DNA of 64,000 bases, taken from assembly GCF_000027125.1 (NCBI RefSeq), contig NC_017626.1. One strand, written 5' to 3'. Source of the stretch: Escherichia coli 042. Its GTDB lineage: Bacteria; Pseudomonadota; Gammaproteobacteria; Enterobacterales; Enterobacteriaceae. Each line of letters begins with the position of its first letter. The stretch's first letter is position 1. Of this stretch, positions 43,624-45,853 are shown in pieces. The notes beneath the pieces are model-generated. The model was not told the DNA's origin. It saw only the letters and a program-made list of their open reading frames with translations, and ran no database searches. A program made the position numbers and the translations under genes.

Positions 43624-44976
43624 ATGACTAAACACTATGATTACATCGCCATCGGCGGCGGCAGCGGCGGTATCGCCTCCATCAACCGCGCGGCTATGTA
43701 CGGCCAGAAATGCGCGCTGATTGAAGCCAAAGAGCTGGGCGGCACCTGCGTGAACGTCGGCTGCGTACCGAAGAAAGTGATGTGGCACGCGGCGCAAATC
43801 CGTGAAGCGATCCACATGTACGGTCCGGATTATGGTTTCGATACCACTATAAATAAATTCAACTGGGAAACGTTGATCGCCAGCCGTACCGCCTATATCG
43901 ACCGTATTCATACTTCCTATGAAAACGTGCTCGGTAAAAATAACGTTGATGTAATCAAAGGCTTTGCCCGCTTCGTTGATGCCAAAACGCTGGAGGTAAA
44001 CGGCGAAACCATCACGGCCGATCATATTCTGATCGCCACCGGCGGTCGTCCGAGCCACCCGGATATTCCGGGCGTGGAATACGGTATTGATTCTGATGGC
44101 TTCTTCGCCCTTCCTGCTTTGCCAGAGCGCGTGGCGGTTGTTGGCGCGGGTTACATCGCCGTTGAGCTGGCGGGCGTGATTAACGGCCTCGGCGCGAAAA
44201 CGCATCTGTTTGTGCGTAAACATGCGCCGCTGCGCAGCTTCGACCCGATGATCTCTGAAACGCTGGTCGAAGTGATGAACGCCGAAGGCCCGCAGCTGCA
44301 CACCAACGCCATCCCGAAAGCGGTGGTGAAAAATGCTGATGGCAGCCTGACGCTGGAGCTGGAAGATGGTCGCAGTGAAACGGTAGATTGCCTGATTTGG
44401 GCGATTGGTCGCGAGCCTGCCAATGACAACATCAACCTGGAAGCCGCTGGTGTAAAAACCAACGAAAAAGGCTATATCGTCGTCGATAAATATCAAAACA
44501 CCAACGTTGAAGGTATTTACGCGGTGGGCGATAACACGGGTGCAGTGGAACTGACACCGGTGGCAGTTGCAGCGGGTCGCCGTCTCTCTGAACGCCTGTT
44601 TAATAACAAGCCTGATGAGCATCTGGATTACAGCAACATTCCGACCGTGGTCTTCAGCCATCCGCCGATTGGTACTGTTGGTTTAACGGAACCGCAGGCG
44701 CGCGAGCAGTACGGCGACGATCAGGTGAAAGTGTATAAATCCTCTTTCACCGCGATGTATACCGCCGTCACCACTCACCGCCAGCCGTGCCGCATGAAAC
44801 TGGTATGCGTTGGACCGGAAGAGAAGATTGTCGGAATTCACGGCATTGGTTTTGGTATGGATGAAATGTTGCAGGGCTTCGCGGTGGCGCTGAAGATGGG
44901 GGCGACCAAAAAAGACTTCGACAATACCGTCGCCATTCACCCGACGGCGGCAGAAGAGTTCGTGACCATGCGTTAA
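43624..44976 (+). CDS. gor: Glutathione reductase
   Basis: 450 aa; FAD-binding GGGSGG, redox-active [13 protein letters not shown] disulfide motif. Confidence 0.95.
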
Positions 44977-45029
44977 ATGTTAAAGGGCAAAGAGTGGTGT
45001 GCTCTTTGCCCTTAGTTACGTTTCCGCTA

Positions 45030-45113
45030 TCAGTTCAGAAGCTGAAGCAGAAAGCGGATCAGTTCCAGCAGCGCAATTAACGCCCCAAGAACGATGATTG
45101 CTTTATCAATCAC
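45030..45113 (-). CDS. dinQ: SOS-inducible membrane toxin peptide DinQ (27 aa, GTG start)
   Basis: Minus-strand translation from GTG at 45113 reads MIDKAIIVLGALIALLELIRFLLQLLN then stop. Below the 60 aa ORF-track cut-off; found by manual translation. Confidence 0.8.
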   Translation of the reverse strand: MIDKAIIVLGALIALLELIRFLLQLLN

Positions 45114-45304
45114 CCGTTTTCTCCATGCGATGGAGTGAGAATGCATCCGCTTACTCATCCACTGCCTGTCACGGCGCATGTCTCATTGTTAGATAAGAAC
45201 TCTCTCACTCCGGCCAGAGCATCAGTTAACGGCACCACCCGTACTTCTGACCAGGACTTTGAAAGCGTTTATGCGCATTACCAGAGTGAAAATGCCTCAG
45301 AGCT

Positions 45305-45324
45305 AACTGGATAATCATACAGTA
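45305..45324 (-). promoter_or_regulatory. LexA box of dinQ (TACTGTATGATTATCCAGTT on minus strand)
   Basis: Reverse complement of 45305-45324 has the CTGT-N8-CCAG SOS-box architecture, upstream of dinQ. Confidence 0.75.
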
Positions 45325-45387
45325 CATGCAGGTTATAAAACCAGCACGTCCTTGCAATAGTTTCAGTATGGTATTAGCATTGATGCG

Positions 45388-45470
45388 TTAGATGATGGCA
45401 TTCTCACTCCAGCCAGAGCCACCAACTCAGGGCTGAAGAGTAAAAAAACCGACGCAAAGTCGGTTTTTTT
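45388..45470 (+). ncRNA. agrA: agrA-like small RNA (dinQ-homologous repeat with own promoter and terminator)
   Basis: -35 TTGCAA (45352-45357), 17-bp spacer, -10 TAGCAT (45375-45380); body shares tctcactccagccagagc with the dinQ leader; ends in hairpin ccgacgcaaagtcgg plus T-run. Exact ends approximate. Confidence 0.55.
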
Positions 45471-45618
45471 ACATCCGGATTCGGACAAGGCTTAATATGA
45501 CGATGACCCAGTGAAAGTATATAAATCGTCACTGCGATATATACCGAAGTGCTCCCTCCGCCAGCTGAAGAAACCGCTAATTCTTGCAATGTTAGCCACT
45601 GGCTAATAGTATTGAACC

Positions 45619-45703
45619 GTTAGATAAGAGCTCTCTCACTCCAGCCAGAGCCACCAACTCAGGGCTGGAAAGTAAAAAACCGACGCAAAGTCGGTTTTTT
45701 TAC
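45619..45703 (+). ncRNA. agrB: agrB-like small RNA (antisense-type regulator of dinQ)
   Basis: -35 TTGCAA (45584-45589), 17-bp spacer, -10 TAGTAT (45607-45612); body gttagataagagctctctcactccagccagagc nearly identical to dinQ leader segment 45188-45220; same terminator hairpin. Exact ends approximate. Confidence 0.55.
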
Positions 45704-45853
45704 GTCCTGATTCAGACCTCCTTTCAAATGAATACCCAACGCTTAATTCACACCTATTACCTTCCTCTGCACATACACATTCGTTAAACCATATATGTTT
45801 TTGACTTATCCGCTTCGAAGAGAGACACTACCTGCAACAATCAGGAGCGCAAT

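Follow-up and report, generated by a model that had tools for sequence, protein, structure and literature searches.

What occupies the spacer between gor and arsR in Escherichia coli 042, and which of the small RNAs encoded there would hold its toxin gene in check? A first-pass annotation, made from the sequence alone, had identified the spacer as the described dinQ-agrAB locus. We examined it within the window, by which we mean the whole 64,000-nucleotide stretch of 042 DNA that was analysed (Table 1). The identification is borne out: RefSeq, Rfam, NCBIfam, the K-12 annotation and the published accounts (Weel-Sneve 2013, PMC3567139; Kristiansen 2016, PMC5066626) concur, no sequence feature speaks against it, and we regard it as nearly certain that the spacer is the dinQ-agrAB type I toxin-antitoxin locus in a K-12-like functional configuration. 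As a correct manual rediscovery the 042 locus matters little on its own, and it shows that toxin genes of fewer than 60 aa and trans-antisense sRNAs are recognisable from raw sequence by a model reader. The one lead that deserves specialist attention is the alternation, among E. coli lineages, of the agr copy that matches the toxin mRNA.

Table 1. Coordinates of the features of the gor-arsR spacer and its flanks in the window
Feature	Position	Strand	Remarks
gor (glutathione reductase), left flank	43624..44976	+	450-aa ORF; gorA in identical genome
gor-arsR spacer	44977-45853		contains dinQ (-), LexA box, agrA (+), agrB (+)
Bidirectional terminator hairpin	44983..45013		common to gor (+) and dinQ (-); 14-bp stem
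dinQ CDS	45030..45113	-	DinQ peptide V, 27 aa, GTG start; stop codon included
GUG start	45111-45113	-	mRNA 195-197
dinQ 5' UTR	45114..45307	-	+1 = 45307; +44 processing site = 45264; +125 = 45183
Element 4	45121-45126	-	A182-G187; AUGGAG; SD GGAG at 45121-45124
Element 3	45130-45141	-	U167-U178; UUCUCACUCCAU; part of Shine-Dalgarno hairpin 45121..45141
AgrB target site	45189-45220	-	G88-A119; contains element 2 and variable block
9-nt variable block, leader	45195-45203		type B = AAGAACTCT on + strand
Element 2	45202-45214	-	G94-G106; inside AgrB target site
Element 1	45280-45292	-	U16-28; predicted to lock element 2 in inert +1 transcript
LexA operator 1	45305..45324	-	TACTGTATGATTATCCAGTT; overlaps -10-like TATGAT (45314-45319) and +1 site
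Weak second LexA operator (probable)	45327..45346	-	TGCTGGTTTTATAACCTGCA; CTG-N10-CTG
agrA promoter	45352..45380	+	TTGCAA, 17 nt, TAGCAT; identical to K-12
agrA sRNA gene	45388..45472	+	RF02891 94.1 bits; fold z = -5.6; poorly matched copy in 042
9-nt block, agrA	45394-45402
Decayed gor coding copy in agrA-agrB spacer	45496..45575	+	source gor 44710-44800
agrB promoter	45584..45612	+	TTGCAA, 17 nt, TAGTAT; hexamers identical to K-12
agrB sRNA gene	45620..45703	+	RF02891 108.1 bits; fold z = -5.0; matched antitoxin (predicted) in 042
9-nt block, agrB	45626-45634
arsR, right flank	45854..46207	+	first gene of arsRDABC operon here

Identity of the locus and its flanks

The dinQ/agrA/agrB locus is already known, annotated and experimentally characterised in K-12, where its organisation and mechanism have been described exactly as set out here (PMC3567139, PMC5066626). 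Its position between gor and arsR marks the 042 locus as chromosomal dinQ proper, as opposed to dql. An 881-bp region is 100% identical in several E. coli chromosomes in which gorA and the ars operon flank dinQ, and RefSeq names the product of the dinQ ORF in those genomes 'damage-inducible type I toxin DinQ'. More widely, the locus was matched in 5,422 of 5,426 complete E. coli genomes.

The annotation of K-12 MG1655 places dinQ, agrA and agrB at homologous positions, with gene order, orientation and gor/arsR flanks as in 042; the four mRNA elements and the AgrB site are likewise shared. The two spacers differ at 23 of 877 alignment columns (substitutions or indels); none of the differences falls in LexA box 1 or the promoter hexamers, and the DinQ amino acids are unchanged. 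In K-12, as in 042, AgrB is well matched to the toxin mRNA and AgrA is mismatched, the AgrA block being GATGGCATT in 042 and GATGGCTAT in K-12; the 042 AgrA terminator stem also carries one extra A. By analogy with the K-12 experiments, transcription, processing, translation, toxicity and repression by AgrB would be expected to proceed in 042 in the same way.

The flanks hold some features of their own. The ars operon is arsR-arsD-arsA-arsB-arsC here and arsRBC in K-12. ArsR equals the K-12 protein for its first 85 aa and then diverges (100/118 including the stop codon; 297/354 nt); the break in identity suggests a recombination breakpoint inside arsR. Elsewhere in the window, a match to the Rfam shuA/chuA 5' UTR thermoregulator (RF02597; 58111-58142, minus strand; 60.1 bits against a gathering score of 58) implies a chuA haem-uptake locus.

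The DinQ peptide

Translation of the dinQ ORF confirms the 27-aa minus-strand peptide with a GTG start that had been read manually from the sequence. It gives (M)IDKAIIVLGALIALLELIRFLLQLLN, identical to K-12 DinQ, and the single coding difference from K-12, at 45087, is synonymous. This identity and the score against NCBIfam NF041472 toxin_DinQ (54 bits, cut-off 30) place the peptide among the small hydrophobic single-transmembrane DinQ equivalogs. In K-12 the GTG start has been established experimentally, and experiments there with an identical DinQ and a near-identical AgrB have demonstrated that the peptide is toxic and that the sRNA represses it (PMC3567139, PMC5066626). The dinQ terminator is placed immediately past the gor stop codon in the K-12 paper (PMC3567139, PMC5066626); the 042 hairpin has A/T at 44989/45007, where K-12 has T/A, a compensatory change at paired positions.

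Two other coding assignments can be weighed here. The 27-aa frame is nested in a 49-aa ATG ORF (45030-45179, minus strand), and the true product might start at that ATG (45179) or at another upstream codon. The longer form was the original annotation, and longer constructs are likewise toxic. K-12, however, translates only the +44 transcript, giving a peptide of the 27-aa size; the Shine-Dalgarno (SD) GGAG sits 7 nt 5' of the GTG; the K4stop mutation abolishes the phenotype in K-12; and both RefSeq and NF041472 model the 27-aa form. We consider a longer product highly improbable and retain the 27-aa peptide.

On the plus strand, RefSeq lists a 'hypothetical protein' (57 aa) in several genomes at the place homologous to a 59-aa ORF of 042 (45135-45314). 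Were this the real gene, the repeats would be incidental. The ORF, however, has neither a promoter-like site nor a family match, covers the hypervariable 9-nt block and the LexA box, and is deleted in ~990 genomes, and the region is fully accounted for by known RNA features. We give its reality next to no weight: lying antisense to the leader, across the dinQ 5' UTR and LexA box, it was probably called in error.

Predicted SOS control of dinQ

The SOS box noted earlier upstream of dinQ is LexA operator 1, and it is unique in the window: the pattern TACTGT-N9-CAG occurs once in the 64 kb, against 0.14 expected. We rely on the published value for K-12 LexA operator 1, HI = 4.83 (PMC3567139, PMC5066626), because the 042 box is identical in sequence. 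A second LexA box, with an HI of 13.82, adjoins the first in K-12 (PMC3567139, PMC5066626), and the sequence of 042 points to the probable exact position of its counterpart given in Table 1. A predicted LexA operator overlapping the dinQ promoter is present in 042 by sequence identity to K-12, and the TATGAT within it is the putative -10 element of dinQ. LexA would repress dinQ through this operator, and DNA damage would lead to a dinQ transcript of ~330 nt, read from the minus strand and starting at 45307.

A proposed folding switch in the dinQ leader

To place the published leader elements we used the relation window = 45308 - n, anchored on the SD (G184-G187) in the numbering of Kristiansen 2016 (PMC5066626); every published boundary of a dinQ mRNA element then lands on the stated base. 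The sole change from K-12 in the mapped elements is C28 to U (45280), by which the pair with G94 becomes G.U. U28 in place of C28 slightly weakens the element 1 lock.

In the mechanism described for K-12 and carried over here, the +1 transcript would not be translatable, because element 1 pairs with element 2 while elements 3 and 4 sequester the SD. Removal of the first 43 nt would give the +44 form, in which element 2, once freed, pairs with element 3; this opens the SD, and the 27-aa DinQ can be translated from its GTG. DinQ would then insert in the inner membrane, with depolarisation and lowered ATP as the outcome.

Folding backs this four-element switch in part. The minimum free energy (MFE) structure of the +1 RNA (ViennaRNA) contains the 1:2 duplex over all of its 13 bp together with the SD hairpin formed by 3:4, and that of the 44-230 fragment contains the 2:3 duplex. 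In the predicted MFE structure of the full-length +44 RNA the 2:3 duplex was not seen, and the predicted accessibility of the SD changed only modestly; the support is partial on both counts.

The leader also shares a 14-nt perfect inverted repeat with agrA (45131-45144 against 45398-45411). The 042 AgrA RNA carries the sequence of element 3 of the dinQ mRNA (GCAUUCUCACUCCA) at its nt 11-24, so that element 3 and the Agr RNAs are predicted competitors for element 2 that use practically one sequence.

Two divergent small RNA genes

The two direct repeats of ~115 nt (45372-45486 and 45604-45717; 87% identity) each correspond to an sRNA gene. Both match Rfam AgrB (RF02891) over its full length, with scores well beyond its gathering score of 40 (Table 1), and the toxin gene beside them lies on the opposite strand, as in the AgrB family. 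The earlier description of a TTGCAA-17-TAG(C/T)AT promoter for each repeat is upheld at the positions in Table 1, each promoter ending 7 nt 5' of a TTAGAT start, and the hairpin CCGACGCAAAGTCGG followed by a T-run, noted in the same reading, is found in both repeats, in agreement with Rfam and folding. Both sRNAs fold into the Rfam structure, with compensatory changes at three base pairs across 14 homologs.

A consensus scan missed both the promoters and the terminators of the agr genes, the former because their -35 and -10 hexamers are below its thresholds, the latter because an A/T extension of the stem consumes the T-run. We treat the result as a limitation of the tool, since Rfam and folding show the terminators.

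One part of the first-pass annotation has to be corrected. It had the agr genes transcribed convergently with dinQ; by the coordinates, as by the paper (PMC3567139, PMC5066626), they are divergent. The agrA -35 begins at 45352, and transcription of dinQ from its +1 at 45307 heads to lower coordinates; seen from the dinQ promoter, both agr genes are upstream and are read in the outward direction.

AgrB as the matched antisense RNA in 042

That the repeats resemble the dinQ leader at 45188-45220 had been noticed from the sequence, and the resemblance is uneven: this 33-nt segment, a third copy of the repeat, is 94% identical to agrB (45619-45651) and 79% identical to agrA (45387-45419). The leader repeat shares the plus-strand orientation of the agr genes and dinQ is read from the minus strand; the agr RNAs are antisense to the dinQ mRNA for this reason, and the antisense relation claimed earlier holds in trans. 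Complementarity of ~31 nt between the 5' end of an sRNA and nt 88-119 of the dinQ mRNA is found in AgrB, which pairs there through 30 Watson-Crick pairs, one G.U and one A.C out of 32, the A.C mismatch being conserved. Position 11 of AgrB (45630) is G in 042 and A in K-12, which gives a G.U wobble and 30 Watson-Crick pairs against 31 in K-12. AgrA forms 25 Watson-Crick and four G.U pairs of 32 with the leader. The predicted duplex of the 5' 35 nt of AgrB has an energy of -58 kcal/mol, compared with -23.5 +/- 2.7 for shuffles; that of AgrA in 042 reaches -44 to -45 kcal/mol, well beyond shuffled controls.

In the resulting picture AgrB, an 84-nt RNA, would be made constitutively from a sigma-70 promoter of its own that faces away from dinQ. 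Pairing of the first 32 nt of AgrB with dinQ mRNA nt 88-119 would close the SD hairpin again and direct RNase III cleavage, and DinQ would thereby be kept off. AgrA, a tandem paralog with a mismatched 9-nt block, would not be expected to repress dinQ in 042.

Alternatively, both sRNAs may regulate dinQ in 042, with AgrA acting beside AgrB, for example on the full-length +1 transcript. Arguing for this case, deletion of agrA in K-12 raised full-length dinQ RNA 3-fold, the AgrA duplex lies well beyond its shuffled controls, and the agrA promoter, terminator and Rfam fold are intact. Counter to this, K-12 AgrA, likewise with 25/32 Watson-Crick pairs, left SHAPE reactivity at the SD unchanged and failed to inhibit translation of the +44 form in vitro, and the agrA deletion in K-12 had no UV phenotype. 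We find a joint action of the two RNAs unlikely and continue with AgrB as the probable antitoxin of 042.

Relation to other toxin-antitoxin systems

The tisB-istR-1 system of E. coli is unrelated to dinQ-agrAB in its sequences and peptide. IstR-1 acts by blocking a ribosome standby site. AgrB, unlike IstR-1, triggers a refolding that closes the SD hairpin (PMC5066626). The two systems are nevertheless alike in plan: tisB-istR-1 likewise has a LexA-controlled small inner-membrane toxin, an inert primary transcript that is activated by 5' processing, and a divergently encoded sRNA whose pairing site in the 5' UTR lies apart from the ribosome-binding site (PMC3567139).

Closer in sequence family are the dql (dinQ-like) loci of enterobacterial chromosomes and plasmids, for example agrB-dqlB of the IncX3 plasmid pOXA-484 (PMC5066626, PMC12317039). 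Their leaders are of one architectural family with that of dinQ, and they too have an Agr-type sRNA; their peptide sequences, variable blocks and genomic contexts differ from those of dinQ. At the dql loci of Hafnia and Citrobacter, Rfam AgrB scores 40-76 bits and the leader matches the adjacent agr copy.

Lineage differences in the matched agr copy

The 9-nt block in the dinQ target is polymorphic in E. coli, with at least three allelic types. Type B, with leader AAGAACTCT, is that of K-12, the 042 window, YL3 and 06-00048, and its matched copy is agrB (AAGA[A/G]CTCT). Type A, with leader GACGACTAT, is that of ATCC 11775, DE17, E69, E. albertii and others, and is matched by agrA (GATG[A/G]CTAT). 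Type C has the leaders AATGGCATT, AATGGTATT and AATAGCATT, occurs in O157:H7, O26:H11, STN0717-20 and others, and is also matched by agrA ([A/G]ATGGCATT). The typing covers a scan of species-representative genomes and sampled complete E. coli genomes, with ~25 loci inspected (those examined for the variable block being L002, L006, L036, L072 and L123-L139). For the species-representative genomes the search pattern specified 15 bases; six loci among the matches listed were relevant, and the rest were mostly chance hits in unrelated phyla.

Wherever the dinQ promoter is intact among the sampled loci, one of the agr copies forms 29-31 Watson-Crick pairs, at -50 to -57 kcal/mol, and the other copy, where present, gives -40 to -45 kcal/mol. 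For types A and C, as for E. albertii, the mismatched copy is AgrB, at about -40 to -45 kcal/mol, and the copy that reaches -50 to -57 is AgrA. All of the sampled loci that lack agrB (10/10) are of type A or C; agrB was lost from them by a 231-bp unequal crossover or by a deletion reaching into arsB. The co-variation of the leader and its matched agr copy extends across the E. coli types, E. albertii, Hafnia and Citrobacter. The dql blocks of Hafnia and Citrobacter are quite different, yet the leader equals the adjacent agr copy there, and Citrobacter adds a mismatched second copy.

The type counts are to be read as identity bands from queries with a 70-nt leader together with the ~25 inspected loci, and not as a full census. 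The type B leader was found at ≥99% identity in 1,671 genomes, a type-A-like leader in ~420-450 and a third leader group in 2,325, with no leader match in ~970. By haplotype, at ≥99%, 1,584 genomes carry that of K-12 and 1,251 the type C haplotype of STN0717. In such bands type B, which is K-12-like, comes to ~1,600-1,700 complete genomes, and types A and C to ~2,800, including O157:H7, O26, O111 and the E. coli type strain ATCC 11775.

These patterns suggest that the working antisense RNA, agrA or agrB, differs between E. coli lineages, and that AgrA may serve as the antitoxin in types A and C. AgrA and AgrB could then be two specificity variants, with the leader block changing over from one to the other, probably through gene conversion that involves the three repeats; we hold this explanation tentatively, at a little short of even. 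In the literature agrA has been called partly degenerated or non-binding, on the basis of K-12, and none of the literature that was searched mentions that the matched copy alternates. If it is true, the conclusion from K-12 that agrA is non-functional would fail to generalise, and agrA would be the antitoxin in most E. coli; the 'non-functional' label appears to be lineage-specific. The co-variation is also natural evidence for the pairing of AgrB or AgrA with dinQ and may interest those who work on type I toxin-antitoxin systems.

Probable origin of the agrA-agrB duplication

Between agrA and agrB lies a decayed copy of gor coding sequence, whose source is ~180-270 nt before the gor stop codon. 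Its local alignment score is 71, compared with 29 +/- 4 for shuffles (maximum 44; z ~10), and blastn within the window gives E = 0.001. The copy is less decayed in O157 (53/70 identical), and a divergent Escherichia genome keeps 61/82; in E. albertii its first 19 nt are joined to the last 30 nt of gor, including the stop codon. Decay has been independent among these three. Downstream similarity between agrA and agrB stops 14 nt past the terminator; a tandem duplication should have its junction, at which the right end meets the left, at this point. On the simplest view, an ancestral tandem duplication would have spanned the segment from the 3' part of gor through dinQ to agr. It would predate the split of E. 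coli and E. albertii, the second dinQ having been lost later.

Collapsed and rearranged loci

In ~990 of the 5,426 complete E. coli genomes, including O25b:H4-ST131, the leader repeat has recombined with an agr repeat. Lost in the collapse are 199 bp that contain leader nt 1-87, the dinQ promoter, the two LexA boxes and an agr promoter; what is left is a promoterless dinQ CDS, for which RefSeq keeps the dinQ annotation. Examples are AR_0086 (L128 2470-2600; dinQ L15Q) and FEA3 (L137). Major pathogen lineages such as ST131 thus carry a promoterless remnant of the locus. In one O169:H41 genome a TnpB-family element replaces dinQ.

We also considered whether the second BLAST place in each genome might be an extra copy of dinQ; cross-matching of agrA and agrB inside the same locus is the simpler explanation.

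Other rearrangements were seen outside E. coli. In Citrobacter werkmanii (L005, reverse complement, 846-1952) a dql locus is flanked by four AgrB-family copies in two tandem pairs; one is a collapsed leader-agr fusion like that of ST131, and one has an E. coli-like block that is mismatched to the local leader. An uncultured bacterium contig (L023, CAJMPC010000160.1) matches the window at 99.5-100% identity over the dinQ leader and LexA/promoter region, and its adjacent gor at only 82%; the dinQ-agr segment may have been exchanged horizontally, or the metagenome assembly may be chimeric.
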